Shown here one piece after another: positions 3,640 through 54,888 of a stretch of DNA of 64,000 bases. Position numbers and translations under genes: made by a program. The stretch comes from Halothiobacillaceae bacterium UBA5861 (GTDB taxonomy: Bacteria; Pseudomonadota; Gammaproteobacteria; UBA5861), in the NCBI GenBank assembly GCA_002432635.1, contig DJFX01000012.1, positions 112 through 64,111 of the forward strand. The letters run 5' to 3'. Each line of letters starts with the position of its first letter. Position 1 is the stretch's first letter. The notes under the pieces were generated by a model, which was not told where the DNA came from, searched no databases, and saw nothing but the letters and a program-made list of their open reading frames with translations.

Positions 3640-4242
3640 TTAGAACGTGAGCCTAACACCAACGTGAAAGTTATCTTCCAACTCAAGGTCAGAGATGGTG
3701 GGCGTATCTACCGTGACTTTTCGGTAACCGAAATAAAGAATGGAGGAAGGGACCAATTCAAACTTTACGTCCACAGCATATTCAAGCAATTCTTCTGAAT
3801 CCATAAAGCTTAAAATAAGAGGGGAATAAAACAGTTCTCCGCCAACCGTCATTTTTCGAGCAAAGTAAGGACGGAGATTGATTTCCCCACCAATAGAAAG
3901 ATTAGCCAGGCTATCCTCTACATCAAGCTCACCATAGCTGGCGCGAACACCCAAGCCGAACTGGACGGAGCCTTCTGCTGAAACCGGGCGGCTTTTTACC
4001 ATCACTTCCGCATGAGCGAGGTAGTCATTGTTACTGTTAAAGAATGCACCAAAAGCAATATCAGCACCTTCGATACGCTCTTGCGTGTCGGCATTAGCGG
4101 CTCTTTTTGTGAGCCCAAGTGTTGATGTATGTGTGAGAAACATGACTTCGGCTGTCTCATCACTGATGCTGATATCCAGACCTGTCGCACCTACATGGCT
4201 AACCGCTAAAAAAAGTACAACACTTGTTATCCGCTTAAACAT
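3640..4242 (-). CDS. Small outer-membrane beta-barrel protein, YfaZ-like
   Basis: N-terminal signal peptide MFKRITSVVLFLAVSHVGA, alternating beta-strand pattern, and a C-terminal aromatic residue (..VGVRLTF) typical of OMPs. Confidence 0.5.
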   Translation of the reverse strand: MFKRITSVVLFLAVSHVGATGLDISISDETAEVMFLTHTSTLGLTKRAANADTQERIEGADIAFGAFFNSNNDYLAHAEVMVKSRPVSAEGSVQFGLGVRASYGELDVEDSLANLSIGGEINLRPYFARKMTVGGELFYSPLILSFMDSEELLEYAVDVKFELVPSSILYFGYRKVTVDTPTISDLELEDNFHVGVRLTF

Positions 4243-4386
4243 ATAATTCCTCAAAGATCGATTGGCGATTTTGTAATCGTTTTTCTGACAGGGATCGTAC
4301 TGACTATTATCTAAAAATTCCAATTAATTTAATACATTTCGTACAATGAACGTCCAGTAAACTTCCACTACTCCCGCACAGTCAGA

Positions 4387-8541: not shown

Positions 8542-9744
8542 CCCCATCACTAACCCCTGCGGATTGGTATAACGGGTTGCATGACGATCGGCGTCTTTAA
8601 TTCCCAGGGCATCTTCGGCTATCAATACGCGCTGCACAGAAGGCGCACCTTCTCCGACGAGAAACACATGTGCATAACTTGACAACCGGGCAATGCGGTA
8701 ATCTTTGGCCAGGGCATACCCCCCGAATAATTCAGACGCAAATCCCGCTGCCTGCTTCAAGGCCAGTGAAGCAGCGTATTTTGCCTGCGCTGACAAGCGA
8801 TTGGCAGGCAGGTCATTATCCATCAGCTGTGCCGTGTGGTACGTCATTAACCGTGCGGACTCAATGTTGACTAATGCATCAGCAATCATCCCCTGTGTAA
8901 ACTGGTAGTTTGCCAGTGGCTTGCCGCGCACCTCGCGTTCTTTTACGTACTGAATAGCCTCATCCAAACACGCTCGGGCAAGCCCGACACTTCGCGCCGC
9001 GACTGAGACCCGACCCGCTTGAATGGCATGCATCGCATAGCGAAAACCCTGGCCTTCCTCACCCAAAAGGTTTTCTTTGGGGACTTCAAAGTCATCGAGA
9101 AAGATCTCACAACTGCGCAAGGACTGCGACAAGCCCACAAACTCTACGGGGCGAGCCTCCCAACCCGGGTACTTTTTGGGCTCTACAATAAAAGCCGAGA
9201 CGCCTTTGGCTCCGGCATTCCTATCGGTTTTCGCAAAGAGAATGCCGGTATCCGTCTGATCTGCCAACGTAATAAACATTTTAGAGCCGTTAAGATAGTA
9301 AGAGCCTCCCCGGCGTTTGGCGGTCGTGCGCATGTTGCCGAGCGCATCCGATCCGCCGCCTGGCTCAGTCAAAGCCCAGCAACCAATGTGCTGGCCGGAC
9401 AATAAATCAGGAATATAGCGTTTGATCTGCGCCTCGCTGCCACCCGCATAAATCGTGTAAGGGCACGTCATCCCTTGTGGGTTGTGGCAGAGTGAGAAGC
9501 CGATATCCAACCGAGCCAACTCTTCTGCCACAACAGCCATAGCGAGAAACCCCATCTGGCTCCCACCCAGCGACTCGGGAAAAACCGGCCCATACAAGCC
9601 CGCCTCTCCGGCCTTCAAAATCAAATCCCGGGGAAACGCGCCTTGCTCTTCATAGCGGGCCATTTCTGGCACAACGGCTGTCTCCATAAAACGGATAACG
9701 CTTTCCCGTAAATGATGAATTTCTTCAGGTAAAAATTGATCCAT
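8536..9744 (-). CDS. Acyl-CoA dehydrogenase
   Basis: ACAD fold motifs ([20 protein letters not shown]-terminal GG..A helix region). Confidence 0.85.
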   Translation of the reverse strand: MDQFLPEEIHHLRESVIRFMETAVVPEMARYEEQGAFPRDLILKAGEAGLYGPVFPESLGGSQMGFLAMAVVAEELARLDIGFSLCHNPQGMTCPYTIYAGGSEAQIKRYIPDLLSGQHIGCWALTEPGGGSDALGNMRTTAKRRGGSYYLNGSKMFITLADQTDTGILFAKTDRNAGAKGVSAFIVEPKKYPGWEARPVEFVGLSQSLRSCEIFLDDFEVPKENLLGEEGQGFRYAMHAIQAGRVSVAARSVGLARACLDEAIQYVKEREVRGKPLANYQFTQGMIADALVNIESARLMTYHTAQLMDNDLPANRLSAQAKYAASLALKQAAGFASELFGGYALAKDYRIARLSSYAHVFLVGEGAPSVQRVLIAEDALGIKDADRHATRYTNPQGLVMGL

Positions 9745-10623: not shown

Positions 10624-12134
10624 CAAACGAAAACCTCTACCATCTGCTCGAAACCCGCTTCCCCACGGGCACCCAAGCTCTGGCATTGACAAGCCCTGAG
10701 AGGCGGTATTCCTACCAAGACATGCAAGTCATCGTGAACCGCTACTGCCAATACATTGCAACAATTGGCCTTCGCCCTGGCGACCGCCTTGCCGTACAAA
10801 CGGATAAATCACCCGAAGCTGTTTTTTTATACCTTGCCTGTTTAAAGGCCGCCGTTATCTACATTCCGCTGAATATTGCTTATACGGCGACCGAAATGGC
10901 TTACTTTATTGAGAATGCTCGCCCATCCTGTCTGGTATGCAGCCCAGACAATCAGACGGCCCTCACACCCATTGCGGAAAAATTAGGGGTCAAAACGATT
11001 GAGACCATGGATGCGCAGGGCCAAGGCAGCTGGGCAACACAAGCCAGCAAAATGACAGAGGCCTGCGACACTCAGCCCGTTCATGGTGATGACATCGCCG
11101 TTATCCTTTACACGTCCGGCACAACTGGCCGCTCCAAAGGAGCTATGCTCAGCCACGAAAACCTGAAACATAACGCGCAGACGCTGCACACACTTTGGGG
11201 GTGGAAACCCGGTGACGTACTGTTGCACGCACTCCCTATCAATCATGCTCATGGCTTGTTTGTCGCCCTTCACTGCTCACTGCTAAACGGCTCGAACATG
11301 CTGTTTCTACCGCGATTTGACCCCACAACCGTCATCAAGCTGTTGCCTGAAGCGACTGTAATGATGGGCGTACCCACCTTTTACACGCGTCTGCTGGCTC
11401 AGGATGGCTTCAACAAAGCGGTTTGCCGCAATATGCGGCTGTTCATCAGTGGTTCAGCGCCCTTGCTCGAATCCACCTTTGAAGCCTTTGAAGAGCGCAC
11501 CGGGCATCGCATTCTTGAACGTTACGGGATGACAGAAGCCGGCATGATCACCTCTAACCCGCTGGAAGGAGAACGGGTTGCCGGCAGTGTCGGCTTCCCC
11601 TTACCCGGTACCGAGGTCCGCGTGGTGAATGATAGCGGCGTTGCGCTCCCTGACGGGGAGAAAGGCATGTTGCAAATCCGGGGGAAGCATGTTTTCAAAG
11701 GTTACTGGCAAATGCCGGAAAAAACCCGTGAAGAATTCACCGAAGATGGTTTCTTTATGACCGGAGACATCGCCACCTGTATTGACAGCCGGATCACCAT
11801 CGTCGGCAGGGGGAAAGATTTAATCATCAGTGGCGGTTACAACGTTTACCCCAAAGAGGTAGAACAGGTTATTGATGCCATTGAGAATGTGCTGGAGTCT
11901 GCGGTGATTGGGCTGCCAGACCCCGACTTTGGGGAGTCAACCACCGCTATTGTTGTGCCAAGTGACCCCTCAGCCCCCCCTACTGATACGGTGATCATTC
12001 AGGCAACCAAAGCGGCTCTGGCGAACTACAAGGTCCCCAAACAGGTATTCTTTCTGGACGCATTGCCACGAAACAGCATGGGAAAAGTACAAAAAAATAA
12101 ACTGCGGGAACAGTTTACATCCGGTCACAGCTAG
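10620..12134 (+). CDS. Malonyl-CoA synthetase-like AMP-dependent ligase (MatB-like)
   Basis: AMP-binding motif YTSGTTGRSKG, then HALPINHAHGLFVA, GYNVYPKEVE and a C-terminal K. The overall pattern is that of the MatB subfamily. Confidence 0.75.
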   Translation: MTNENLYHLLETRFPTGTQALALTSPERRYSYQDMQVIVNRYCQYIATIGLRPGDRLAVQTDKSPEAVFLYLACLKAAVIYIPLNIAYTATEMAYFIENARPSCLVCSPDNQTALTPIAEKLGVKTIETMDAQGQGSWATQASKMTEACDTQPVHGDDIAVILYTSGTTGRSKGAMLSHENLKHNAQTLHTLWGWKPGDVLLHALPINHAHGLFVALHCSLLNGSNMLFLPRFDPTTVIKLLPEATVMMGVPTFYTRLLAQDGFNKAVCRNMRLFISGSAPLLESTFEAFEERTGHRILERYGMTEAGMITSNPLEGERVAGSVGFPLPGTEVRVVNDSGVALPDGEKGMLQIRGKHVFKGYWQMPEKTREEFTEDGFFMTGDIATCIDSRITIVGRGKDLIISGGYNVYPKEVEQVIDAIENVLESAVIGLPDPDFGESTTAIVVPSDPSAPPTDTVIIQATKAALANYKVPKQVFFLDALPRNSMGKVQKNKLREQFTSGHS

Positions 12135-12140
12135 TATCTC

Positions 12141-13199
12141 TCAAGATGAGCCCCGGGCATGGCTTTGCATGCCCGGCTCTGCACTTTCTCCCATCCGTTC
12201 GCCCGAGACAGACCGGAGATTATTCAAAAACTGACGTGTGGCCGCTTCCCAGGAATAGCACTGGGCGGCAGCCAGTGTTTTCTTCCTGTCCACCTTCAGT
12301 GCTCGCATTGCGGCTGCGTACAAGTCTTCATCAAGCGCCCCATTTTCACCTTCGCGTACAACATCCACAGGGCCAGTCACGGGGTAGGCCGCGACAGGAA
12401 CACCACAGGCCATAGCCTCTAACATCACCAATCCAAAAGTATCTGTCCGGCTGGGGAAAACAAAAACATCTGCCGCCGCTAAATGCCGAACCAGTTCTTG
12501 CCCTTTCTTTACCCCAACAAAAATTGCGTTTGGAAACTGTTTTTCCAGGCGCAGCCTGTCCGGCCCATCCCCCACAACATAGAGAGTACCTGGTAGCGGC
12601 AAGGATAAAAAAGCTTCAATATTCTTTTCAACCGCCACCCGGCCAAGATACATGAAAACCGGTTTATCTCCGGGCAATTCGGTGTTGTCCTGCGGACGAA
12701 ACAGGCTGACATCAACGCCTCTGGACCACTTGACCAAATTTGAGAATCTACGATCTTTTAATACTTGCATCTGAGAGTCAGTGCTGACCATGGTGCACAC
12801 GGCCCGCCGGTGAAACCAACGTAAAAAAGCATAACTGATGCCCAGTGGAACCGGTAGACGTAAACGCAGATATTCCGGGAATTGCGTATGGTACGAGCTA
12901 CTGAAACACAGCCCGTTTTTCATACAAAATCGCCGAGCTGAAAGACCAAGCGGACCCTCTGTCGCAATATGGATAGTGTCTGGCTGGAAGTCCTTAATCA
13001 TTTTCGCAAGACGCCGCCCCGGGAAAAGAGCCAGAGGAATGGCGTGATAGCCCGGCATGGGTAAGCTCGGGAATTGATCGGGGCCAATGACGTTGACTTG
13101 GTGCCCCCACATCTGGAGGTAGTGCCGAGTTTGTTCCAGTGTACGCACGACGCCGTTCACTTGTGGCCGCCAGGCATCAGAAATAATCAGAACCTTCAC
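12141..13199 (-). CDS. Glycosyltransferase family 4
   Basis: GT-B fold with EX7E-type C-terminal motif (FGLVMLEAMACGVPV). Confidence 0.8.
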   Translation of the reverse strand: MKVLIISDAWRPQVNGVVRTLEQTRHYLQMWGHQVNVIGPDQFPSLPMPGYHAIPLALFPGRRLAKMIKDFQPDTIHIATEGPLGLSARRFCMKNGLCFSSSYHTQFPEYLRLRLPVPLGISYAFLRWFHRRAVCTMVSTDSQMQVLKDRRFSNLVKWSRGVDVSLFRPQDNTELPGDKPVFMYLGRVAVEKNIEAFLSLPLPGTLYVVGDGPDRLRLEKQFPNAIFVGVKKGQELVRHLAAADVFVFPSRTDTFGLVMLEAMACGVPVAAYPVTGPVDVVREGENGALDEDLYAAAMRALKVDRKKTLAAAQCYSWEAATRQFLNNLRSVSGERMGESAEPGMQSHARGSS

Positions 13200-13217
13200 T
13201 GTATGTCAGCCAAGCTG

Positions 13218-14012
13218 TCAGGCATTACTGGCGATAGCCGATTCTTCGTTGTGCGTGTGCAGTGTGTTGCACTGGTCCGACCAATGAATCACCTCAAGCT
13301 TACCGTCAAAGTTTTCGGTTAAGGCGGTGCAACTTTCGACCCAGTCACCATCATTGCAGTACAAAACGCCATCCATGATTTTAATTTCCGGGTGATGGAT
13401 ATGCCCGCAAACCACACCGTCTACTTTTGCTTTACGCGCTTCATTGACGACCGCTTCTTCATAATTGCTGATCACAGCCACGGCATTTTTAACTTTGTGT
13501 TTGATATACGCCGAAATCGACCAGTAGGGATAGCCCAGTTTGCGGCGGACATAATTGAAGTAGCGATTGAATTTTAATAGCAGCTCATAAGCAACATCAC
13601 CGACATGTGCGACAAAGCGGCTGTAACAGACAATACTGTCAAATTCATCCCCATGTAAAATCAACAGGCGTTTGCCTGTCGCAGTTGTAAAAATATCGCG
13701 CCTTTTGATTTCGATGTTGCCAAACTCTGTGCCCACGTGATCGCGAATGGGCTCATCGTGGTTACCTGGGATGTAAATGACTTTGGTTCCGTGCTTGGCT
13801 TTGCCCAAGATGGTTCGAATGACATCGTTATGGCTCTGCGGCCAATAGAAACCCCGCTTCATCGCCCAGAGATCAATAATATCGCCCACCAGGTAAAGAT
13901 AGTCGCATTGTGTATTACGAAGAAAGTCGAGGAGATAATCGGCATTGCACCCTCGACTTCCGAGATGAAGATCCGAAATCCAGAGCGTCCGGTACTTGAG
14001 CGGTGTCATCAT
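13218..14012 (-). CDS. LpxH-family metallophosphoesterase (annotated in databases as UDP-2,3-diacylglucosamine diphosphatase-like)
   Basis: LWISDLHLG, GDIIDLW and GNHD motifs. Sits 18 bp upstream of the GT4 gene on the same strand. The start is set at the MMTPL internal Met. Confidence 0.7.
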   Translation of the reverse strand: MMTPLKYRTLWISDLHLGSRGCNADYLLDFLRNTQCDYLYLVGDIIDLWAMKRGFYWPQSHNDVIRTILGKAKHGTKVIYIPGNHDEPIRDHVGTEFGNIEIKRRDIFTTATGKRLLILHGDEFDSIVCYSRFVAHVGDVAYELLLKFNRYFNYVRRKLGYPYWSISAYIKHKVKNAVAVISNYEEAVVNEARKAKVDGVVCGHIHHPEIKIMDGVLYCNDGDWVESCTALTENFDGKLEVIHWSDQCNTLHTHNEESAIASNA

Positions 14013-14124: not shown

Positions 14125-15003
14125 TTATTGCGTCAACCGCTGAATAACGTCCTGATATTTTTGCCGTGTTTTTTCAATGACCTCAGCAGGTAGTGAGGGG
14201 CCCGGCGGCTTTTTATCCCACGAGAGAGATTCCAGGTAATCGCGCACAAACTGCTTATCAAAACTTGGCGGGGCCTCTCCTGGCACCCAGGCATCGGCAG
14301 GCCAAAATCGTGAAGAGTCCGGTGTGAGCACCTCGTCCATGAGCCGCAATTGACCCTTTTCATCCGTACCGAATTCAAATTTCGTGTCTGCGATCAGAAT
14401 ACCGCGTGGGCGCGCATAATCCACGGCAAACCGGTATAAAGCCAGGCTTACCTGCTTAACTTGCTCCGCCAATGCACGGCCTAGCAAGTCCACTGTTTTC
14501 TGAAAGTCGATGTTCTCGTCATGGTCGCCAATTGCAGCCTTGCTGGACGGAGTGTACAAAGGTTCTGGCAGCGGATCAGCCAACCGCAAACCGGCGGGTA
14601 AATCAATCCCGCAAACCACGCCACTGGCTTGATAATCCTTCCACCCGGAGCCGGCAATAAAGCCACGTACAATAGCCTCCACCGGCAGAGGAGTTAAACG
14701 CTTGACGAGCATGCTTCGGCCTTTCGCCCAAGCGTATTCATCCGGATCAGGCAAAACCTCTTCCAGTGTTAGGTTCGCAAGATGGTTCGGAATAATATGT
14801 TGCGTTTTTTTAAACCAGAACAATGAAATTTCCGTCAGCAAGCGGCCTTTATCCTTAATCGCTGTGGGCAGAATCACATCAAACGCCGAGACCCGGTCCG
14901 TGGCAACCATCAAAAAGTGGTTTTCATCCACAGCGTAGAGGCAACGGACTTTGCCCTCTCTCACTAACGGTAACGATTTTATTTTTTGCGCATCAGAAGA
15001 CAT
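14125..15003 (-). CDS. purC: Phosphoribosylaminoimidazole-succinocarboxamide synthase (long form)
   Basis: SAICAR synthetase motifs (GKVR..Y, LIADTKFEFG, VLTPDSSRFW). Confidence 0.9.
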   Translation of the reverse strand: MSSDAQKIKSLPLVREGKVRCLYAVDENHFLMVATDRVSAFDVILPTAIKDKGRLLTEISLFWFKKTQHIIPNHLANLTLEEVLPDPDEYAWAKGRSMLVKRLTPLPVEAIVRGFIAGSGWKDYQASGVVCGIDLPAGLRLADPLPEPLYTPSSKAAIGDHDENIDFQKTVDLLGRALAEQVKQVSLALYRFAVDYARPRGILIADTKFEFGTDEKGQLRLMDEVLTPDSSRFWPADAWVPGEAPPSFDKQFVRDYLESLSWDKKPPGPSLPAEVIEKTRQKYQDVIQRLTQ

Positions 15004-15116
15004 AATTCAAGCCTTAACAACTCATTCAAACGGTTATTCTATCGGTTCACATCACAGGTTCCGAGGCCCACTAGCACTTGGTGAGCCTGGAGCGTAGCTT
15101 TCGGGTGAGCCTTTTG

Positions 15117-15653
15117 TTAAGAAAATTTTTTAGCGTGTGCTCGTAACTTCTTGATAGCCCAATCGTAGTGGCTGGACAAACTGGATACACAATAGCTCCC
15201 GAGCGTAGTAGAGCCTGTCCAGTCAAAATACATTTTAGTGAAAAGCTCTTGATTAGAGAACCTTTCCGTTAATTCCATTACAGATCTATGGCTCGCTTTA
15301 AACATTGTCTTGGCATCGGCAAGTTTAGTTTTTTGGTGCTTTTTCCAAAGTTCATTATTCATTTCACCGTATGTTTTCCATGTATATGGCTCAGGTAGAA
15401 AGTTTGATCTATTTCCTGCCAAGTTAGATCTTATCCAATTCAAAAGCAGCTGATGCCATTCGTAGAGGTGAACCAAGACATCCCTAAGATTTTTGTCTCG
15501 CTTCCAGTGAGCTTCTCTCTTGTTCGAATCGTTTGAAAAGTCAAACTCGGCGGTTAATGACTCTTCTGACATCGAGTCAATCACCTGCCACAGCTGGGCA
15601 AATTTCATATTTGCGGCTTCTACCATTTCGTCTTTAGTCGCAGGTCTTCCCAT
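15117..15653 (-). CDS. ClbS/DfsB-family four-helix-bundle protein (DUF1706)
   Basis: Size is about 178 aa. The W/H-rich pattern (HLYEWHQLLLNWI) is typical of DUF1706. The gene and its flanks are markedly AT-rich compared with its neighbours. Confidence 0.55.
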   Translation of the reverse strand: MGRPATKDEMVEAANMKFAQLWQVIDSMSEESLTAEFDFSNDSNKREAHWKRDKNLRDVLVHLYEWHQLLLNWIRSNLAGNRSNFLPEPYTWKTYGEMNNELWKKHQKTKLADAKTMFKASHRSVMELTERFSNQELFTKMYFDWTGSTTLGSYCVSSLSSHYDWAIKKLRAHAKKFS

Positions 15654-15808
15654 TTCTTTCCCTCTTTAATATCAGCACACATTTGCGTATCCGACAGGCC
15701 TATAATTTTGGTAGACTCTAAAAACTTAAGTTTTACTCTAGAGTCACCTTTCACGTACTCTAAGGCTTTATACCCACTAAATAATTACAATTGCTATGGA
15801 GAAATGAT

Positions 15809-16252
15809 ATGGCTGTGATTAACCCACCAGGGATTCCCATTGAACGCGGGAAAATTCATGAGTTTGCCAACTCAATTGAATGCGATGAACCTCTTTACCA
15901 TGATGAAATTGCGGCAAAAGAAGCGGGCTTACCTTCCGTTGTCATGCCACCAACATACTCTACGGTAGAAAATTTTTTCCCCGCAGCGGGACAAAAAAAC
16001 AAAGTAGAACTGCTTGGACTAGACCTGCGCTTTGTCTTACATGGCGCACAAGAATGGACCATTGAACGTCCGATCTTTGCAGGTGAACACCTGACAATTG
16101 AACACGAAGAGCCCGTTGGCTACACCAAAAAAGGCAAACGTGGTGGCGAAATGCAGTTTTATGACATGGGCATTAACTACAAAGATAAAGATGGCAATGT
16201 TGTCATGCATGTCAAAAGCACTGTGATTCAAACAGGAGGTGTCGTCAAATGA
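15809..16252 (+). CDS. Hotdog-fold protein, MaoC N-terminal-like (HadA-like, non-catalytic subunit)
   Basis: FAS1-like dehydratase/MaoC_dehydrat_N pattern. Upstream RBS GGAGA. Coupled by a 4-nt overlap to the downstream catalytic MaoC protein. Confidence 0.65.
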   Translation: MAVINPPGIPIERGKIHEFANSIECDEPLYHDEIAAKEAGLPSVVMPPTYSTVENFFPAAGQKNKVELLGLDLRFVLHGAQEWTIERPIFAGEHLTIEHEEPVGYTKKGKRGGEMQFYDMGINYKDKDGNVVMHVKSTVIQTGGVVK

Positions 16253-16665
16253 GCAAAGTAGCGATTAGTTCTGTTAAAGAAGGCGACGAATACAGCTTCA
16301 CCGTAAACGACTTTAACCGCACACAGTTTGTGAAATACGCAGGTGGTGGTGGTGACTTCAACCCCATCCATCACGACCAGACCTTTGCGGAGAAAGCAGG
16401 CCTGGAAACGGTCTTCGGCATGGGGCTACTGACCGCCGGTATTTTAAGCCGCGTGCCCGTGGAATGGTTTGGGCCGACCACAGTCCACAAGTACAACGTA
16501 CAGTTCCGCGAACGTCTCTGGCCGGGTGATAATGTTGAATTCAAAGGCGTTGTCGCCAAAACGTATGAAAAAGATGGTGTTGCCTATGCTGACTTGACGC
16601 TGTCTGCCACGAATCAGGATGGCAAACCGCTTATCCTCAGCACGGCAACTGTTCGCGATCAATAG
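16249..16665 (+). CDS. MaoC-family (R)-specific enoyl-CoA hydratase/dehydratase (HadB-like catalytic subunit)
   Basis: Hydratase-2 motif DFNPIHHD. Confidence 0.75.
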   Translation: MSKVAISSVKEGDEYSFTVNDFNRTQFVKYAGGGGDFNPIHHDQTFAEKAGLETVFGMGLLTAGILSRVPVEWFGPTTVHKYNVQFRERLWPGDNVEFKGVVAKTYEKDGVAYADLTLSATNQDGKPLILSTATVRDQ

Positions 16666-16673
16666 CTGCCGAC

Positions 16674-16704
16674 CAGCGGGGTGTGAGCCACATCCACCCC
16701 GCTG
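16674..16704. terminator. Bidirectional stem-loop between convergent operons
   Basis: Perfect 8-bp inverted repeat cagcgggg/ccccgctg with a 15-nt loop, between the hadB-like stop and the TIGR04282-like stop. Confidence 0.4.
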
Positions 16705-16716
16705 ACTTTGTCTCAG

Positions 16717-17364
16717 TCAGTCAATCCAATCGCCGCTGACTGGCTGAATTCCCGAATCCATCAGTCTTTTTAAATCCTCTGGCCGATCCAAGTCCCACGT
16801 TTCAGACAATTCATCCCAGCGCCACCTTAAAACCTGTAACCGGCTTCTTGTTTGCGCCATAACACGTTGTGTTCCCCACGCGATCTTCCAGAAAAGATAA
16901 GGGTGCACTTGCCTTAAGCCAATCAGGGTATAGCCGCCGTCCATTGCCGGGACAAACACGGCAGGCACGCGGTCCAACGACTGAATCGCAGACTGAAATG
17001 TTGCTTTGCTTAAGGCCGGGCAATCCGATCCAACAAGGATCACTTTACGATGAACGTTCAGCCCCTGTTGGAAAGCAAAATGCATACGCCCCCCCAAGTC
17101 AAAACCCTTCTGGCGATAAAAAGCAGCCTGATAGCGTTGTGCCAAGCATACAAAAAACGGCTCCCGGCGTTCGCCTTCTCCCCATATTTCCACATGTGCA
17201 TGGGATACCTCGCTGGCTGTCTTTAATGTTTTTTCCAGTAATTGGGTATGCAATCTGGCCGCCTGCGTGGGCGAAATAGCTTCAAATAAACGGGTTTTTA
17301 CCCGCCCCGCCTCGGGCTTTTTCCCAAAAACAATGATTTTTGCGCCTTTTAATCGGCAGTTCAT
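16717..17364 (-). CDS. TIGR04282/DUF2064-family transferase, the family that partners with ArsS-like radical SAM proteins
   Basis: GT-A-like nucleotide-binding N-terminus (KAKIIVFGKKPEAGRVKTRL) and a DGG motif. It is the last gene of the four-gene minus-strand operon. Confidence 0.6.
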   Translation of the reverse strand: MNCRLKGAKIIVFGKKPEAGRVKTRLFEAISPTQAARLHTQLLEKTLKTASEVSHAHVEIWGEGERREPFFVCLAQRYQAAFYRQKGFDLGGRMHFAFQQGLNVHRKVILVGSDCPALSKATFQSAIQSLDRVPAVFVPAMDGGYTLIGLRQVHPYLFWKIAWGTQRVMAQTRSRLQVLRWRWDELSETWDLDRPEDLKRLMDSGIQPVSGDWID

Positions 17365-18044
17365 CGGGTATTCCGGTAGCGTTGAGCTAACTGATGCGGG
17401 TCAGCGCCGAGATAGAACGCCAAGCGGAGACGCCACATCAGCCAGACGGTCTTGAAGATACCGTTCTGCTCCCAACGTCGGCTGGATGTCACCAAACGTT
17501 GTGATAAACACACGGGACGAGAGTGTGCCTTGGCCTGCTTTGAAAATTGAATGTCTTCCATCAGAGGCATGAGCGGAAACCCACCGATTTGCTCAAAAAA
17601 TGTCCGCATAACAAAGATGCCCTGATCTCCCGTCGCAATGCCACTCAGACGAGAGCGAAAATTTATCATGGTTTCAATGACCCTCAGCGGGCTATGGCTC
17701 CCAGATAAGCGGACATCAAAACGTCCCCAAGGTCGCCCTGTTTTTGTGACGGCCCCTTCGATTACGGCAGCACAATCTATAGGTGCTAGTGTATCGGCAT
17801 GTAAAAAACACAAAATATCGCCCTGGCTGGCGGTTGCGCCCCTGTTCATTTGCACAGATCGGCCCGCCGCTGACTGGATAATATGGTCAACGTACTCTCG
17901 GGCTAACGGAATTGTTTGATCCTGGCTGCCCCCATCGACGAGTACAATTTCATGCCCGTTTGCCCGCTCAGCTTGCAAGCAGTCCAGGGTTTTCTGAATC
18001 ACGGTCTCTTCATTCAAGGTGGGGATGATGAAACTCACCGTCAT
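17361..18044 (-). CDS. GT2 glycosyltransferase, TIGR04283-like
   Basis: IIPTLNEE start, D-G-GS-D and the GT2 DxD/ED motif. Overlaps the downstream gene by 4 nt. Confidence 0.7.
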   Translation of the reverse strand: MTVSFIIPTLNEETVIQKTLDCLQAERANGHEIVLVDGGSQDQTIPLAREYVDHIIQSAAGRSVQMNRGATASQGDILCFLHADTLAPIDCAAVIEGAVTKTGRPWGRFDVRLSGSHSPLRVIETMINFRSRLSGIATGDQGIFVMRTFFEQIGGFPLMPLMEDIQFSKQAKAHSRPVCLSQRLVTSSRRWEQNGIFKTVWLMWRLRLAFYLGADPHQLAQRYRNTR

Positions 18045-18050
18045 GATGAT

Positions 18051-18431
18051 TCACTCATCTGCTGCGCTTATACCAAGACGATTGCCTTCTGAGTCTCTGA
18101 TAATGGCATAGTGACCCGCACCTCCCGGTATGGCCACAGCAGCAGCCAACACTTCGCCACCATATTCGTTAACTCGCTCCAGCAGGGGCGCCAATGCCAA
18201 CCCTGGATTGAGGAAAATCAATGGCCCCCGTTCAGATGGTATGTAGCCTTCCGCACAGATAATCGCACCCTGAGCTTGTGGCCGACCAAAGGTTAATAAG
18301 CCCACGAAATGCGAATCAATTTGTTGTGTGGGTATCGTGCATTCAAACACACGGCTGTAAAAATATTTGGCACGGGAGAATATTTCCACGGGAATTTCAA
18401 ACCAGGCTACGCCCGTCGTGTTTATTTGCAT
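18051..18431 (-). CDS. VOC (glyoxalase/bleomycin-resistance fold) family protein
   Basis: About 126 aa with the paired beta-alpha-beta-beta-beta module pattern. Sits between the radical SAM and GT2 genes with 6- and 13-nt gaps. Confidence 0.6.
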   Translation of the reverse strand: MQINTTGVAWFEIPVEIFSRAKYFYSRVFECTIPTQQIDSHFVGLLTFGRPQAQGAIICAEGYIPSERGPLIFLNPGLALAPLLERVNEYGGEVLAAAVAIPGGAGHYAIIRDSEGNRLGISAADE

Positions 18432-18444
18432 TCTTTCCTGCCTG

Positions 18445-19407
18445 TTAACTCAACGCGCCGCCACAGCTCGACCCCTGGCCTGCCGTACACCCATAGCAAT
18501 GGTCCGCTGTGGCAATCGGCAACCCGTACAGCTTCGCCTCAATTAATTCTTTAATGTGCCTGCGCTTAAGTGCATTACCCGACAGAGGCATGTTTAACAT
18601 TTGATTAAAATCGCAATCATAGACATATCCATTGTAATCCACACTGATCGTCGTACGGCACATGACTTCTTCGAGATTATCGTCATTGTGAGACGATTTC
18701 AGCAGGGACATGTAGTCTTCAAACTGGCCGCGGGAAACCAGTGTGCTGCCAAAACGCTGAATCGGCAGGTTAGCCAGCACCAGCAGGGAGTTAAATGTGA
18801 CATCAAAATGCTCTGACAGATGGCTTTTATAATCGGCCTCCAGACCTGTTTGACCGGGAGGCAGCACCGGCCCTTGAGGGTTATAAACCAAATCCAGTAC
18901 AAGCCCGGAACCCGCTTTACCGTAGCCTAACTGATTCAATTTTTGTAGCCCACGGATGCTCGGCCAATACACATTTTTACCTCGTTGCGCTTTTACATTT
19001 TCTTCCAAATAGCAGGGAAGCGATGCAACGATGTGGATGCAATTTTCGGCCAAAAACTCAGCCAACGCTTCTTGTCCGGGCTCTTCGAGCACTGTCAGAT
19101 TACAGCGGTCGATAATGTGCATACCGAGGTTTTTCCCGGCCTCCACCAAGTAGTAAAACTGCGAGTTCAACTCGGGCGCTCCTCCGGTTAAATCGAGCGT
19201 TTTTACACCGCTGGCTTGCATAAACTCGATCACTTGATCGGCCGTTTTCCGGTCCATCATTTCTGTGCGTTTAGGTCCTGCATTGACGTGGCAATGCAAG
19301 CATGACAGGTTGCAGTAATAACCAAGATTGACCTGTATGACTTCTAAATGTGATCGTTTGATCGGAGGAAAATCAGAGACTTTGAGTAACGGGTAGGTAT
19401 CATGCAT
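18445..19407 (-). CDS. ArsS-like radical SAM protein (arsenosugar-type 5'-deoxyadenosyl transferase family)
   Basis: CNLSCLHC (CxxxCxxC) radical SAM motif near the N-terminus. The C-terminal Cys-rich tail HCYGCTAGQGSSCGGAL is characteristic of the ArsS/TIGR04167 family. Confidence 0.7.
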   Translation of the reverse strand: MHDTYPLLKVSDFPPIKRSHLEVIQVNLGYYCNLSCLHCHVNAGPKRTEMMDRKTADQVIEFMQASGVKTLDLTGGAPELNSQFYYLVEAGKNLGMHIIDRCNLTVLEEPGQEALAEFLAENCIHIVASLPCYLEENVKAQRGKNVYWPSIRGLQKLNQLGYGKAGSGLVLDLVYNPQGPVLPPGQTGLEADYKSHLSEHFDVTFNSLLVLANLPIQRFGSTLVSRGQFEDYMSLLKSSHNDDNLEEVMCRTTISVDYNGYVYDCDFNQMLNMPLSGNALKRRHIKELIEAKLYGLPIATADHCYGCTAGQGSSCGGALS

Positions 19408-27229: not shown

Positions 27230-29899
27230 TTAATCATCGCGCAGCGAAAGCTCCATGAAGTAACAGCGATCGGTTAAGTTGGTCGTCACTTTAAATCCCA
27301 GCCGCCTCGCCAGCTTGACCATTTTGCTATTACCGTAGAGGGTCTCACCAATCACCCGCTTTTTGCCACTTTCCCGGCAGTAACGAATGACTTTTTCCAT
27401 CAACGTACGGCCCAACTGCTGGCCCTTTTGATCGCGCCGAATGATGATCGCAAACTCAGCATCCTGGTTGTCAGCACTGTTCACGACTCGCACGACACCC
27501 AGAATTTCTGGCTCACTCTCGTCGGTTTCGCCAACCGCGATAATCGCCATCTCACGGTCGTAGTCAATTTGTGTAAAGTGGGCCATATCTTCGTGATTCA
27601 ATGCCCTCACGACACGAAAAAACCGCAGATAAATATCTTCTGGATCCAGACGATTGAAGAATGCCTGGTGCATGGGCTCGTCATCCGGACGGATCGGACG
27701 GAGCAAAACCGACCGGCCATTGGGCAGTGTGATACGCTCTTCCAAATCCGCAGGATACGGGCGGATCGCCAAACGCTCCTCACCCGTTTTTGCTGTATCT
27801 TGCACCCAAATACGCGCCCCCACTACCACAGCGCCTGCGTCATCGACCACCAGCGGGTTAATATCCAGCGCGGTGACGCGAGGCAGCCCCACAACCAGCT
27901 TCGATAAGTTGAACAAAACCTGATCGAGAGCTTCCAGATTCACCGCCGGGTGCTGGCTGTCGCCCCGTAAAATCCGGTACATACGTGTTTGTCTCATTAA
28001 GTCGCGCGCCAGCTTTAAATTCAAAGGTGGCAAGGCAACCGCGATATCCGTTGCGACATCAGCGGCCAACCCACCTTGTCCAAACAAGATCACTGGCCCA
28101 AAGGCTGGGTCTTGCCGCACACCCATCACCAGTTCCAGTGCGTCCGGCCTGCGCACCATCTTTTGCACGGTATAACTGCTGATCACCGCGTCGGGAGCCT
28201 GTGCAACCACACGCTGTTCGATAGACTCAAAGGCTTGTTTCAAGCCCTTCTCACCTTCAACATTCAGTGCAATACCACCCACCCCGGTACGACTGTCAAA
28301 GCCTTCGATATTCGCTTTCACTGCGACGGGATACGTCATAACCCGGGCAGCTTCGCAACCCGCTTCAACCGTCGGCACACAACGCGTTGGTACAACCGGT
28401 AAGCCAAAAGCCGCCAATACACGGTGAGACGCCTCTTCATCCAACTGGTCTCGCCCGGCATCTAATGCTTGCTGAATCACTTGGTGGGCCTTTTTTTCAT
28501 CCGGCGTGATACGCTGCTTGTTACTTGGCGGTGTTTCCATCAAGACTTTTTGTGTCCTGCGGTAAGCTACCCGGTGCAAAAAGGCACGTACGGCTTTAAA
28601 GGGCGTGTCATAAAAAGGGATGCTATGGCGGTGGAAAACATCCCGCGCTTCGTAAATAGAATCCCCACCCATCCAGCACGTTAGCACTGGCTTCTTGGCG
28701 TGTTTGATGGTGTCACTCAGCGCCAGGGCAATATCCGTACTGGAAATACCCGCCATGGGAACATGTAACACCAGCACAGTGTCTACACCAGCATCTTCCA
28801 GCAGGGCCTCACAGGCTCGTACATAGTGCTTTGCAGTCGCCACGCCGGTGATATCCACCGGGTTCTGATGGCGCCCGGTGCGCGGAATCAGCTGATCCAA
28901 GCGCGCAATGGTCTCGGGCTCCAGGGCAGCCAGGCGTCCGCCCCGGTCCACCAGGGTGTCTGTCGCCATCACTGCCGGACCACCACCATTGCTGAGAATG
29001 GCCAACCGCTGGCCGTTGATGGGCTTGGACCAGGTTAACGTCTCTGTCGCATCAAACAATTCACTCAATGAATACACACGCAACATCCCCGCCCGAGTGA
29101 TAGCGGCATTGGCCACCTGCTCGCTATCCAGCGTCAATGACCCGGCAGCCTGAACATTGGCTTCCCGCCCGGCCTTGATGATCAGCACAGTTTTATTGCG
29201 GGATGCGGCCCGTGCGGCAGACATAAATTTGCGCGCATGCCCAAACGACTCCACATACAGCAGAATATTTCGTGTCTGGTAGTCATTAACCAGATAATCC
29301 AGCACATCGGCCACATCGATATCCACGCTGTCACCCAACGACACCACGTGAGAAAAGCCGACCTTGTTGGCATGGCCCCAATCCAAAATGGCACTGCATA
29401 AAGCACTGGATTGAGAAACAAATGCCAGCTTGCCTGGCGCCACCTTCGATAAATGCGCCGCACTGGCATTTAAACCGGTGCGAGGAGAAATAAACCCCAA
29501 ACTGTTCGGTCCCAAAATACGAATGCCTTGGCTGCGCGCCAACGCCTGCACTTCATCCTGCAAGACATTTTTATCTCCCCGGACGCGAAACCCATCACTG
29601 AGGATGACCGCCGCCTGGCAGCCTGCGCGACTGAGTGCCTGCAGTAAATCGGGTACTGTCTTCGCCGGGGTACAAATCATCGCCAGCTCGGGTACCTCGG
29701 GCATGTCAGCCACTGAGGGAACAGCAGAAACGCCTTCAATCTGTTTATGATGGGGGTTGACCGGCGTGAGCACGCCGCTGAAATCACTTTGCAAAAGGTT
29801 CTTAAAAACAATATTCCCCAGTGATCGCGAGCGGTTAGACGCACCAATCACCGCAATCGACCGGGGCTTAAACACACGGTCAAAATGTCGGATACTCAT
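27230..29899 (-). CDS. Protein lysine acetyltransferase Pat/YfiQ (ADP-forming acyl-CoA synthetase-like domains plus C-terminal GNAT)
   Basis: 889 aa. CoA-binding N-domain (IAVIGAS), succinyl-CoA synthetase-like flavodoxin and ATP-grasp domains, and a C-terminal GNAT (QKGQQLGRTLME). Confidence 0.85.
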   Translation of the reverse strand: MSIRHFDRVFKPRSIAVIGASNRSRSLGNIVFKNLLQSDFSGVLTPVNPHHKQIEGVSAVPSVADMPEVPELAMICTPAKTVPDLLQALSRAGCQAAVILSDGFRVRGDKNVLQDEVQALARSQGIRILGPNSLGFISPRTGLNASAAHLSKVAPGKLAFVSQSSALCSAILDWGHANKVGFSHVVSLGDSVDIDVADVLDYLVNDYQTRNILLYVESFGHARKFMSAARAASRNKTVLIIKAGREANVQAAGSLTLDSEQVANAAITRAGMLRVYSLSELFDATETLTWSKPINGQRLAILSNGGGPAVMATDTLVDRGGRLAALEPETIARLDQLIPRTGRHQNPVDITGVATAKHYVRACEALLEDAGVDTVLVLHVPMAGISSTDIALALSDTIKHAKKPVLTCWMGGDSIYEARDVFHRHSIPFYDTPFKAVRAFLHRVAYRRTQKVLMETPPSNKQRITPDEKKAHQVIQQALDAGRDQLDEEASHRVLAAFGLPVVPTRCVPTVEAGCEAARVMTYPVAVKANIEGFDSRTGVGGIALNVEGEKGLKQAFESIEQRVVAQAPDAVISSYTVQKMVRRPDALELVMGVRQDPAFGPVILFGQGGLAADVATDIAVALPPLNLKLARDLMRQTRMYRILRGDSQHPAVNLEALDQVLFNLSKLVVGLPRVTALDINPLVVDDAGAVVVGARIWVQDTAKTGEERLAIRPYPADLEERITLPNGRSVLLRPIRPDDEPMHQAFFNRLDPEDIYLRFFRVVRALNHEDMAHFTQIDYDREMAIIAVGETDESEPEILGVVRVVNSADNQDAEFAIIIRRDQKGQQLGRTLMEKVIRYCRESGKKRVIGETLYGNSKMVKLARRLGFKVTTNLTDRCYFMELSLRDD

Positions 29900-39743: not shown

Positions 39744-41777
39744 ATGAAAAAAGATGTGTTCAAACCCTTGGTGCTGGCCAGCGCCATCACGCTCGCACTC
39801 ACAAGCTGCAGCAGCAGCGATGATGAGTCCGATAGCAATACGGGTAACAATAACAACGGTAATACCACAGAGGTCACCGGATCTGCCTATGCGCCCAACG
39901 GTTCAGTCGCTTCGTTTCACTCGGCAACCCATCCGCTCTTTGCATGGACCAGCCGGTTGATTTTCAGCCCGGCAATTGCGGCCATCACAGGTCTGCAACC
40001 CGTCACTGGCGCGACTGTCGAGCTGATCGAAATTGACGATGATGGCAACCAGGTGGGTGAAGTGATCGCCACCACCTCAACCTCCATTACCGGTAGCTAC
40101 ACCTTAACCATACCTTCCGGCGTCACGCTGTCTGGGAATTTGATTGTCCGCATTACCGGGAACGGCAACACTGAAATGCGCGCACAAGTCGTCGAGCAAG
40201 CGGTGGATATCACCCCGGTTTCCGAATTCGTGCTTCAAAAATTTATCGCTGACGATACCGATCTGGACCAGTTGACAACCGCATCTGTCGTCAAACTCAC
40301 CGGAGAAGTTGAAGAGTTTGATCTGACCGCCACAGCAGATCTCAGCTCGATGCTTGCGCAACTGGAGACAGAAGTTGGTGAATTCGTTGACACCAGCATC
40401 GACACCATCACTCAAGTCGCTGGCGATACAACAGCTCTCGCCGGTAGTTATCGCTTGATCGGCTTAAGCCTGGGCTTGCATGATGATGATATGCAATACA
40501 ACGTCGGAACACTGGGGACGGACCTGTACCGAGATGACTTCAATGTGACGAGTAGCGGCACAGGCTCTGTCAACATCCAACTCACCCGTAGCGAGTCAGC
40601 TTGGAGTAATTTCACGGTGTTTGATAATACCGTTAACCTGGAGTATTACGCGGACATTGAGACGGAGAACGAGACTATTCCCGGCACCTTCAGCAGTAGC
40701 GGTATTCTCACCGTCGAAGGTGAATTTGAAGAAGATATTGATGGCGACTACGCCTGGCGTTTCCCAGCGAGTACCCTTCAATTCCAAAAAGCAGCCACTT
40801 CCGATGTCTTCTTCGGTATTTTTGGTGATGCCGGTGTCCGGTATCAAACCGTTGATACCAACAATGACGGCATCAAAGACGCACTGGATCCCAACCAGCG
40901 TGAAGGAGATGAAGTATTCAGAGAGTTAAATATTCTGGCCAAAGCCCCATCCGACTTTTCTGCAAGTGACATGAGCGGCACCTATGGTGCAGTTGAGCTG
41001 GCTATCGAGCAAGATCAATCCGGCATGCAGCACTTCAAAGTCGCTACTTTTTCAATCACTTTTGAGGGAACGTCGACCTTCAGCGCCACACAATCCCAGT
41101 ACGATGAGTTTGAACGCTCATTCAGCACCTTCCAATTGACGAACGGTACCGACACAGAATCCGGAGGAGACGGCCAGTTGCAGGTTTCCTCATCCGGGGA
41201 GATCACTGCAATCGGTGGCGATGACGCCGATGGCTTTTTCAGTGCTGATGGCAGCCTGATGGCTATCTATGAGTCAGAATTTATTGACGACAGCAACCCA
41301 GACGACGGCGCTGTTAATCAGGTTGAATATGAGCTGATGCTGGCACTCAAACAGCCGGCCAGTACCATCAGTATTGCCAGCAACACTTATCGGGTGCAGA
41401 TGCTCGCTCAGCGATGGGAAGGTAATGCAACGGCATCCGTCACCACAGGCTTTTCATCCATGCTCACAGTGGATGCAACAGGTTCGAGCGCCACCGCAAA
41501 TCTCCACATCCGGGAAGCCGCCAAGGACAGTTACACCGCTGATGTAGAAGCCAGCAGCGAAATACTGGTACCGCAAAGTATTACGATTGAACCAAATGAT
41601 GGACCCGGCAAGCGAGTAATCACGCTGACCTTCGAAGATGGCTCCGTTCTGAAAGCTATTGGTTCATTCAACGCAGATGGCAGCACTGGCATTTTCAAAG
41701 TCCGTGCTGGGGAATCAGCGGAAGCCGAACCCGATACACTGGGCATCATGATCCTTCAGGAACTATCCGGCGGGTAA
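39744..41777 (+). CDS. Large acidic lipoprotein of unknown function
   Basis: Lipobox LALTSC followed by a Ser/Asp/Asn/Thr low-complexity linker. 677 aa, very acidic (D/E-rich). No domain recognised. Confidence 0.5.
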   Translation: MKKDVFKPLVLASAITLALTSCSSSDDESDSNTGNNNNGNTTEVTGSAYAPNGSVASFHSATHPLFAWTSRLIFSPAIAAITGLQPVTGATVELIEIDDDGNQVGEVIATTSTSITGSYTLTIPSGVTLSGNLIVRITGNGNTEMRAQVVEQAVDITPVSEFVLQKFIADDTDLDQLTTASVVKLTGEVEEFDLTATADLSSMLAQLETEVGEFVDTSIDTITQVAGDTTALAGSYRLIGLSLGLHDDDMQYNVGTLGTDLYRDDFNVTSSGTGSVNIQLTRSESAWSNFTVFDNTVNLEYYADIETENETIPGTFSSSGILTVEGEFEEDIDGDYAWRFPASTLQFQKAATSDVFFGIFGDAGVRYQTVDTNNDGIKDALDPNQREGDEVFRELNILAKAPSDFSASDMSGTYGAVELAIEQDQSGMQHFKVATFSITFEGTSTFSATQSQYDEFERSFSTFQLTNGTDTESGGDGQLQVSSSGEITAIGGDDADGFFSADGSLMAIYESEFIDDSNPDDGAVNQVEYELMLALKQPASTISIASNTYRVQMLAQRWEGNATASVTTGFSSMLTVDATGSSATANLHIREAAKDSYTADVEASSEILVPQSITIEPNDGPGKRVITLTFEDGSVLKAIGSFNADGSTGIFKVRAGESAEAEPDTLGIMILQELSGG

Positions 41778-53487: not shown

Positions 53488-54888
53488 ATGAATAAAGGGC
53501 GGGCTCTTTCAGGCTTTGCATTGGCTTGTGTTGCGATTGCAACATTGATTGATCAGCTTTCGGGGGGTTTACCCATTGTCTACCACGTCGCCAATGCGGC
53601 CATGCTGGTCTATGTGGCGCTTGAAATTTGGCCCAGCCCGATGATGACGAAAGTCATGATTGCCTTTGCTATCGTGCTGGCAGTGTTGCTCTGGCCACAT
53701 ATGACGTCGCCGTGGACCGTTGTCGAGGAGGGCATCGCCTTCGGGGCCTTTTTGAGTACGTTCTTTGTCGCACTCGGTTTTGTACGCGCCGCTTCGGACA
53801 AGTCCAAACGCATCAAGCTTTCAGGCCGACACCTGCTCACGCAGCCCCCTTCAAGGCGCTACCTCGCCTTAACGGTGGGCAGTAATCTTTTTGGATTGAT
53901 TTTAAGCATTGGCGTTTTGAACCTCTTGGGCTCAATGGTCAAAAAGAGCAACACGCTTGCCTCTGTTGGCGGCAGTGTCCAAACCTTGAAAACCCGAGAA
54001 CGGCGTTCTTTGATGGCAATCCAGCGTGGCTTTTCGATGGTCCCGGCCTGGTCACCGCTGTCGATTTCGGTACCGATTGTTCTGTTGGCGATCCCAAGCC
54101 TGTCGTGGGAACAGCTTGTGCCTGCTGCACTGGCGGCGGTGATTCTACTTTTGCTGTTGGGCTGGCTGGATGATCGCATCACCTTCCGGGGGCGCGTCGC
54201 TCCGCCTTATCAAAGTGATGGCCCACCACTGAACTGGTCGGTGCACTTGCCATTCCTGTTACTCATTGCCGCTATTTTTGGCTCCTCAGTATTGATGGAG
54301 AAAACCCTAGAGACTCGCATGGTGGTCGGCATGATGACCTGTGCCCCGATTGCCGCTTTGGTCTGGATGTTGATGCAGTCATACCCATTGGGTTGGAAGC
54401 TGGGTTGCGCCTGGATGCGCAAGCGCCTCATCACTCAAATGACAGAGACTTTCCCTCGCTATCGAATCGAAATCATTGTGATGTTCAGCGCCGGGTTTTA
54501 TGGGGTTTTGATCAAAGAGACCTTGCCACCCACGTTGATCGCAGATGCCATCACTTACTTTGATATTTCGGTGGGGTGGCTACCTTTGCTGGTCTTTCTC
54601 TTGATTATTGTCATGGCCAATTTGACCCTGCACCCAATGTTGTCTGTGATTATTCTCAGCACGGCTATGCCCGCGCCGGAGTCTTTGGGCATCTCGCCCA
54701 TTTCCATGGGTCTGGCCTATCTTTCCGGGTGGGGTGTCGGGGTCAGTACTTCGCCCTACACCATCTGTAATCTGATTGTGGCCCAGGTGGCGGGCAAAAC
54801 CGCTCATCAAGTGGCTTACCAGTGGAATGGCCGTTATATTCTGGCTTGCACATTACTGGGTGGTATTGGGCTCTACTTACTGGCCTGA
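53488..54888 (+). CDS. Polytopic inner-membrane protein of unknown function
   Basis: 466 aa with about 12 predicted TM helices. No family recognised. Confidence 0.45.
   Translation: MNKGRALSGFALACVAIATLIDQLSGGLPIVYHVANAAMLVYVALEIWPSPMMTKVMIAFAIVLAVLLWPHMTSPWTVVEEGIAFGAFLSTFFVALGFVRAASDKSKRIKLSGRHLLTQPPSRRYLALTVGSNLFGLILSIGVLNLLGSMVKKSNTLASVGGSVQTLKTRERRSLMAIQRGFSMVPAWSPLSISVPIVLLAIPSLSWEQLVPAALAAVILLLLLGWLDDRITFRGRVAPPYQSDGPPLNWSVHLPFLLLIAAIFGSSVLMEKTLETRMVVGMMTCAPIAALVWMLMQSYPLGWKLGCAWMRKRLITQMTETFPRYRIEIIVMFSAGFYGVLIKETLPPTLIADAITYFDISVGWLPLLVFLLIIVMANLTLHPMLSVIILSTAMPAPESLGISPISMGLAYLSGWGVGVSTSPYTICNLIVAQVAGKTAHQVAYQWNGRYILACTLLGGIGLYLLA

Follow-up and report, generated by a model that had tools for sequence, protein, structure and literature searches.

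A stand-alone DUF1706 gene of the ClbS/DfsB family acquired upstream of purC in an uncultured gammaproteobacterium

A DUF1706 open reading frame (ORF) of 178 aa was analyzed in a stretch of 64,000 nucleotides from Halothiobacillaceae bacterium UBA5861 (assembly GCA_002432635.1, contig DJFX01000012.1, positions 112 to 64,111), referred to throughout as the window. The gene was acquired horizontally as a stand-alone unit, and the site upstream of purC that it occupies is empty in two related genomes. Taken as a whole, the data tip slightly towards an insertion from the integron cassette pool that would have brought in a detoxifying enzyme of ClbS fold with a histidine-type active site. A preliminary description, made from the letters of the window, had presented the gene as a likely genotoxin-defence gene of the colibactin self-resistance family. 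That function is not supported for the window gene, whose predicted product is missing the catalytic tyrosine of ClbS.

Results

Insertion site

Relatives of the locus with purC proteins 100%, 92% and 73% identical to that of the window came from a search of a large protein collection. GTDB genomes and JGI metagenomes anchored on purC gave a best identity of ~65% and no shared synteny. The 92% relative is a sister species (L168; metagenome-assembled genome (MAG) GCA_022360445.1) and the 73% relative is more distant (L170). Both keep the gene order GGDEF/EAL, radical-SAM/DUF3641, 126-aa protein, GT2, DUF2064, MaoC, FAS1_DH, purC. The spacing between purC and the adjoining hotdog-fold gene (hotdogA) is 205 nt in L168 and 217 nt in L170, and the gene tables of both hold no DUF1706 gene in this interval. 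The features of the window locus are as follows.

14125..15003, minus strand: purC (SAICAR synthetase), native, directly downstream of the insert; NCBIfam NF010568 equivalog at E=4.8e-130 plus Pfam SAICAR_synt.
15004..15062, minus strand: native DNA upstream of purC, including GTTAAGG (15012-15018); homologous to the insert-free sister.
~15063..15677, minus strand: inserted segment of ~615 nt (leader, DUF1706 ORF and 3' tail); from alignment to L168.
15063..15119, minus strand: imported 3' tail with an attC-like 5' half overlapping the stop codon; from a position weight matrix (PWM) and the sister alignment.
15117..15653, minus strand: DUF1706 ORF, 178 aa; Pfam PF08020 over its full length.
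15654..15677, minus strand: imported 24-nt leader, sequence ...gctgatattaaagagggaaagaaATG; boundary from the sister alignment.
15678..15808, no strand assigned: native intergenic DNA from hotdogA to the ancestral purC; sister 93% identical over 15829..15678; G+C content (GC) 0.351.
15809..16665 (15809..16252 and 16249..16665), plus strand: overlapping hotdog-fold pair, HadA/HadB-like, native; Pfam FAS1_DH_region / MaoC_dehydratas.

The ORF thus lies on the minus strand between purC and the hotdog pair, just where the preliminary description had put it. In pairwise alignment with the sister genome the left flank (15829..15678) matched at 141/152 positions and the right flank (15043..14985) at 48/59. 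By eye, homology on the right side reaches ~15062 (native right flank ...TTTGAATGAGTTGTTAAGGCTTGAATTATG in the window versus ...TTTGAATGAGTTATTTAAGGTGTGAAGTATG in L168), and the right junction was moved from 15043 to this point; both junctions are placed to within a few nt. Between the flanks the window holds ~615 nt, made up of the 24-nt leader, the ORF and a 54-nt tail, versus ~10-30 nt in the sister. Every same-species contig that spans the site has the DUF1706 gene, with 0-2 mismatches in 805 nt (7 contigs).

Two same-species Logan contigs (L177 and L178) begin at the equivalents of window positions 15066 and 15115, within a few nt of the insertion junction and of the DUF1706 stop codon, respectively. 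These breaks could reflect presence/absence polymorphism of the insert between strains, or coverage or graph artefacts.

The empty purC-hotdog interval in both relatives demonstrates that the stand-alone gene was gained horizontally, as the preliminary description had suggested. One gain is simpler than two precise losses and agrees with the composition of the gene, which favours acquisition. It is very unlikely that the gene is instead ancestral at this site and was deleted separately in the L168 and L170 lineages. The ~10-30 nt of the sister have no counterpart in the window, so that the insertion is not perfectly clean, and to this extent an ancestral gene is accommodated. Against it, two independent precise deletions would be needed in place of one gain, no other ORF of the window is as low in GC or as atypical in codon usage, and its closest relatives occur in unrelated taxa and on integron cassettes.

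The leader contains a Shine-Dalgarno-like GAGGG ~8 nt ahead of the ATG, by direct reading of the sequence. A promoter scan of 14900-15900 returned 0 sites, leaving the leader without a detected promoter of its own. A terminator scan returned no intrinsic terminator in the flanks of the ORF, and there is no T-run on the mRNA strand. The native intergenic DNA at 15678..15808 presumably holds divergent promoters, and the DUF1706 gene now separates this DNA from purC. Going by these promoter and terminator scans, the gene would be transcribed from native upstream signals, with read-through into purC.

Base composition and codon usage

The window has 52 ORFs of 150 aa or more (mean GC 0.509); the DUF1706 ORF, at 0.410, has the lowest GC of them all (z=-2.8), and the lowest-GC 615-nt segments of the 64 kb all fall at 15126-15940. 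Leave-one-out codon adaptation of the ORF was 0.653 versus a mean of 0.754 (sd 0.03; z=-3.4), which places it last of the 52. GC at third codon positions (GC3) is also low rather than normal. At 0.447 it is the third lowest in the window and is less extreme (z=-1.8; host norm 0.54). GC at first positions (GC1) is 0.408, and GC at second positions (GC2) is low as well. Across the DUF1706 family GC1 and GC2 are low in every host examined, and GC3 alone tracks the host (0.37-0.62). The low GC1 and GC2 of the window ORF are due to its amino-acid composition, the protein being rich in Lys, Asn, Phe and Tyr. Part of the AT-rich stretch is native, namely the intergenic DNA (GC 0.35-0.39) and hotdogA, whose GC3 is the lowest in the window (0.399; relatives 0.385 / 0.372). 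The AT-rich, oddly coded islet is therefore real and beyond chance, but of mixed cause. The extent first given to it, 15004..15808, was too wide, the true span being ~15063..15677.

The hotdog pair was considered as part of the islet and rejected, since it has the same place and the same composition in L168 and L170. GC3 was compared over the pair (window 15809-16665; L168:8939-9795; L170:8924-9783), and the same asymmetry was present in all three species (hotdogA 0.37-0.40 versus hotdogB 0.46-0.58). It is conserved and does not stem from recent transfer.

Protein family and fold

The preliminary assignment to the DUF1706/ClbS-like family was borne out. The Pfam DUF1706 profile (PF08020; cut-off 24.2 bits) scored the protein at 185.8 bits (E=7.7e-55), all of its 166 positions aligning with residues 1-175. 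The DinB/YfiT four-helix bundle had been named as an example of a family whose match would overturn that assignment. The Pfam DinB_2 match of the protein was below threshold (16.9 bits versus 24.8, E=0.0091). Neither this outcome nor a normal GC3, the other one named as refuting, was thus observed. No NCBIfam model was found for the protein. Sequence searches of the PDB returned solely DUF1706 structures (ClbS, DfsB, E. coli 5COF, yeast IRC4, 5COM, 4N6C and 5CQV). The ClbS profile match had E=1.1e-13, and DfsB (5civ) matched in sequence at E=3.8e-9.

An AlphaFold2 model was built from a 36-sequence alignment (predicted local distance difference test, pLDDT, 90.5; predicted template modeling score, pTM, 0.87). 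The top Foldseek match of the model was ClbS (6anr), with template modeling (TM) scores of 0.81/0.85, a root mean square deviation of 2.6 Å and 21-22% identity. The ten best matches were all DUF1706 structures (TM 0.72-0.85), DfsB 5civ being at TM 0.77. DinB/YfiT proteins ranked far lower, with YfiT (1RXQ) at TM ~0.59. The modeled protein therefore has the ClbS/DfsB four-helix-bundle fold. A role in anti-phage defence and an origin from a phage were both rejected: PADLOC gave no match, and the one PHROG that matched (E=5e-7) has no known function.

Active-site residues

Most DUF1706 homologues are functionally uncharacterised, according to the preprint 10.64898/2026.03.30.715271. For ClbS, a statement in 10.1101/431098 that cites Tripathi 2017 gives Tyr55 as crucial both to the enzyme's cyclopropane hydrolase activity and to protection. 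In both single-sequence and profile alignments this tyrosine aligns to His62 of the window protein, which is invariant in 36/36 members of its close clade. The clade has the motif H-L-Y-E-W without exception, versus ...Y-x-x-G-W in all seven solved DUF1706 proteins. ClbS Gly58 is replaced by Glu65 and ClbS Tyr99 by His106. The alignment to DfsB itself stops short of the C-terminus, and the E. coli homologue 5COF was used for this region. Its kink proline is replaced by His162 ('SSPY' to 'SSHY') and one of its tryptophans by His173. Residues invariant in the clade are H49, H62, E65, H106, H122, C155, H162, Y163 and H173.

An exhaustive search of 1.84 billion representatives recovered 760 family members, of which the best 150, reaching down to ~28% identity, were examined. 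Among these best 150, position 62 is His in 112/122 representatives, and D58, W66, H122 and H162-Y163 are also kept down to ~28% identity. By these alignments the window gene is placed in a broad, uncharacterised His-type branch of DUF1706. No structure or experiment was found for this branch.

In the model, H62 (helix 56-78), H122 (helix 111-129) and H162 (helix 160-174) lie on helices 2, 3 and 4. One conserved His on each of these helices suggests an active site built on histidines, perhaps with a metal, such as other DinB-fold enzymes have. In published descriptions ClbS and DfsB lack the histidines with which the DinB superfamily binds metal (PMC10693628, PMC4773401). The DinB/YfiT metalloenzymes (YfiT 1RXQ, the bacillithiol/mycothiol S-transferases and MDMPI) share the superfold; the conserved His of the window protein on separate helices suggest a metal or catalytic site like theirs, and many clade members have a weak Pfam DinB_2 match. 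They differ from the window protein in the low structural similarity (TM ~0.59) and in that its own DinB_2 match falls under the gathering threshold.

Homologues and integron cassettes

The closest homologues are 63-76% identical and form a tight cross-phylum clade from marine or environmental taxa. Members were found in Gammaproteobacteria (Hahella, Zooshikella, Marinobacter and Reinekea), in Bacteroidota (Draconibacterium, Sunxiuqinia, Flammeovirga and Prolixibacteraceae) and in Hyphomicrobiales. This identity across phyla exceeds that of the housekeeping protein PurC outside its own genus (~65%). Close homologues are named 'ClbS/DfsB family four-helix bundle protein' by NCBI. One homologue (P0040), 66% identical to the window protein, is assigned to a 'Candidatus Hodarchaeota archaeon' MAG (Asgard; 2.9-kb contig). 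This is due either to a transfer of the clade between domains or to faulty binning.

In L162 (the 76% identical homologue), L164 (Hahella aquimaris CP132203) and L165/L166 the gene stands within long same-strand runs of small unrelated ORFs separated by attC-like spacers. From these arrays 22 attC-like spacers were curated and used to build a covariance model. In the curated spacers R''/R' and L''/L' pairing was present in 73% of cells versus 30-39% with the partner slid, and covariation was 0.32 versus 0.05-0.12. The model found 37 sites of 16-60 bits in L162, L164 and L165, all in gene orientation and many outside the training set. In L181, one gene downstream of a Marinobacter homologue, there is a single isolated attC. 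Eight homologue contexts thus comprise three arrays, one lone attC and four contexts without attC. No literature linking DUF1706 to integron cassettes was found among the papers searched. The donor pool is most likely that of integron gene cassettes.

In L164 (8540-9860) the attC of the Hahella DUF1706 cassette is interrupted by an insertion sequence (DDE_Tnp_1 transposase, 8583-9722), and joining the two halves gives a canonical 52-nt attC (GCTAACAAAGGGTTCAACCTGACAGCTTCCTGCAGGTTAACCAAGTGTTAGC). Two more insertion sequences (rve family) were found in the same array. The farther relative L170 has a genuine cassette array ~5 kb beyond purC (15759-19376, minus strand) with 7 attC at 21-42 bits, and integrons are therefore active in the lineage. 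This array contains a RelE/MqsA-like toxin-antitoxin system, GST, AAA_33 and three unknown ORFs of ~150 aa.

The 3' tail

At its start, which overlaps the stop codon, the tail reads cTTAAC-AAAAG-GCTCACC...GCTACGCT and resembles the 5' half of an attC. An R''-like TTAAC encloses the stop codon, and an AAAAG spacer and an L''-like box come next, the arrangement seen in the homologue arrays. A PWM of the attC 5' half scored 11.3 bits exactly on the stop codon, at rank 5 of ~128,000 positions. In the window tail no complete attC was found, covariance model R1 giving 11.2 bits with E=3.9 window-wide (15012-15122). A full-length attC in the 113-nt flank was considered, as its CTTAAC/GTTAAG ends pair like R''/R', and was rejected on the E value of 3.9. 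It was also dismissed on folding no better than shuffles (z 0.2-0.3) and on its R'-like half being native in the sister. The tail is neither a complete attC nor a terminator.

Other attC-like matches to the PWM or covariance model (at 1725, 2010, 26334, 4197-4232, 34237 and 29333) were put down to chance, as none follows a stop codon or forms a hairpin. The top match of the window to the attC model is the one at 4197-4232 (minus strand, 15.1 bits, E=0.55, GGATAACAAGT…GCGGTTAGCC, 36 nt), within or beside ORF 3640-4323, and it is probably due to chance.

A direct repeat with an imperfect hairpin at 15080..15116 had been proposed as an insertion scar. The repeat is real, GGTGAGCC occurring at 15080-15087 and 15104-15111 of the plus strand and nowhere else in the window. 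The hairpin is weak: on the plus strand z=-1.8 and 13/200 shuffles fold equally well, and on the mRNA strand nothing significant was found. An 8-bp stem-loop at ~15063-15091 lies inside the imported tail, and its folds are not significant. Repeat and hairpin lie inside the imported tail rather than at a junction, and the junctions themselves show no target-site duplication; the scar interpretation is therefore not supported.

Other features of the window

No integron integrase or cassette array was found in the 64-kb window, and no polyketide synthase or nonribosomal peptide synthetase was present among its 10 largest ORFs. Next to the hotdog pair, 16717-19407 (minus strand) encodes DUF2064, a GT2 glycosyltransferase, the 126-aa protein and radical-SAM/DUF3641, syntenic in L168, L170 and all same-species contigs. 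On the other side of the locus, genes for a metallophosphoesterase and a GT4 glycosyltransferase lie beyond purC in both the window and the sister species. In L170 this position (11386-13655) is taken by an EgtD-like methyltransferase (Methyltransf_33) together with an EgtB-like DinB_2/FGE-sulfatase protein, a pair suggestive of an ergothioneine pathway. Elsewhere the window encodes two unusual fusion proteins. In one (43564-45279, plus strand, 571 aa) a PP2C phosphatase is joined to a Ser/Thr protein kinase. In the other (27230-29899, minus strand, 889 aa) an ADP-forming acyl-CoA synthetase-like protein is joined to a GNAT domain, and this protein is similar to the Pat protein acetyltransferase. 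Two plus-strand ORFs, 39744-41777 (677 aa) and 53488-54888 (466 aa), had no Pfam match at E<=1e-5.

Discussion

Origin of the insert

A promoterless, cassette-sized unit of ~615 nt landed upstream of purC in the ancestor of this uncultured gammaproteobacterial species, after its split from the sister species that retains the empty site; the reading given modest preference here takes this unit from the integron cassette pool. The unit resembles the cassettes of sedentary chromosomal integrons in its size, its single ORF, its short leader and its lack of a promoter, and its homologues stand in genuine attC arrays of Hahella aquimaris and two metagenomic genomes. Unlike the window unit, such cassettes have a complete attC (16-60 bits versus 11.2), an integrase or array, and a G|TT junction signature. 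The window copy is not a functional cassette. It would keep a partial attC and now be fixed, and its insertion probably did not come about through a clean integrase reaction.

Function of the protein

The protein may be an intracellular His- or metal-dependent enzyme that inactivates a small electrophilic or toxic molecule, and would then differ from a tyrosine-dependent colibactin hydrolase of the ClbS type. Three other functions were weighed against this one.

The gene might be a functional orphan ClbS that protects a non-producer by hydrolyzing the cyclopropane warhead of colibactin or of a genotoxin resembling it. ClbS (E. coli pks island; 6ANR, 7MTL) is also a DUF1706 four-helix bundle, of 170 versus 178 aa; it is the best structural match, and it shares with the window gene the capacity to be a stand-alone, horizontally mobile gene (PMC8907063). 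Orphan ClbS-like genes do exist, and the ClbS-like proteins tested so far, 26.8-80% identical to E. coli ClbS, all protected against colibactin (PMC8907063). The lack of polyketide or nonribosomal peptide synthases among the largest ORFs would fit orphan status. What makes a ClbS function unlikely, and turned us away from the genotoxin-defence role first proposed, is chiefly the replacement of the critical tyrosine by an invariant His and of the adjacent Gly by Glu. All solved DUF1706 proteins are Tyr-type, which implies the same for the ClbS-like proteins that were tested. The ~22% identity lies just below the protective range, which is a weak criterion. Three further conserved His of the clade are absent in ClbS. 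The window gene has no link to clb genes, its neighbors being purC and the hotdog dehydratases, or to a known producer niche; its clade is environmental or marine and found in cassette arrays, with no producer link and no PADLOC match.

A non-catalytic binder, which would sequester a ligand or shield DNA and use its His residues for binding or stability, is likewise improbable. ClbS binds DNA and ClbS-DNA complexes have been solved (7mtl, 7mtt), and the C-terminal helix of the window protein is cationic and aromatic (HYDWAIKKLRAHAKK). An active or metal site is a better match for the six His and the Asp, Glu and Cys that stay invariant across phyla in proteins 63-76% identical.

The third alternative, a DfsB/Slf-type precursor that would be secreted and cut by subtilisin into a lytic, sibling-lethal (bacteriocin-like) peptide, is barely credible. 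The window protein shares the Pfam family, the fold (TM 0.72-0.79) and a basic, aromatic C-terminal helix with DfsB, the sibling lethal factor precursor of Paenibacillus dendritiformis (5CIV), and with its homologues 5COF, 5COG IRC4, 5COM, 4N6C and 5CQV. All of these are Tyr-type (...Y-x-x-G-W), whereas the window protein has H-L-Y-E-W. The conserved C-terminal kink proline of DfsB (PMC4773401) corresponds to His162, and the window sequence has no hydrophobic, signal-like stretch at its N-terminus. DfsB is described as non-enzymatic and without metal-binding residues (PMC4773401), whereas the clade has six invariant His; strict cross-phylum conservation of polar and His residues favours an enzyme.

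Several observations weigh against a cassette-derived, His-type detoxifying enzyme. On the side of origin, the mapped junctions show neither a visible target-site duplication nor a terminal inverted repeat, and the G|TT crossover signature of an integrase is missing there. The 11.2-bit score of the tail is no better than chance matches elsewhere in the window. The R'-like core GTTAAGG belongs to the native DNA upstream of purC. Four of the eight homologue contexts (L163, L167, L179 and L180) have no attC. The sole ground for co-transcription with purC is the lack of detectable signals. On the side of function, His could stand in for Tyr as general acid/base, and every ClbS-like protein tested was protective against colibactin (PMC8907063). 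A profile comparison with a neighboring DinB protein, itself without a PDB relative, was aimed at the DinB metal triad and was uninformative (probability 0.2).

Meaning of the locus

The locus is a textbook recent single-gene acquisition, with filled and empty sites in sister species, and is ordinary as an event. Its modest interest is that the gene belongs to a His-type branch of the ClbS/DfsB family that is uncharacterised and frequently carried on cassettes. Caution is called for, as 'ClbS/DfsB family' labels are now taken to mean colibactin immunity, for instance when PF08020 is surveyed in gut metagenomes. In most of the nearest family relatives of the window protein the alignments place no ClbS catalytic tyrosine, and a histidine-rich site is conserved instead.

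We tentatively raise the possibility, which is less than even, that the His-type branch is a distinct uncharacterised class of enzyme with the ClbS fold, in which a DinB-like, His-based (probably metal) site has been kept or regained. Integron cassettes would spread such a class widely among bacterial phyla, possibly also into archaea, and it would give resistance to an environmental electrophile or genotoxin other than colibactin. Should the His-type proteins turn out to be a detoxification enzyme of their own that travels on cassettes, tallies of 'colibactin resistance genes' made at the level of the domain would be too high, and a new mobile resistance function would be open to study.

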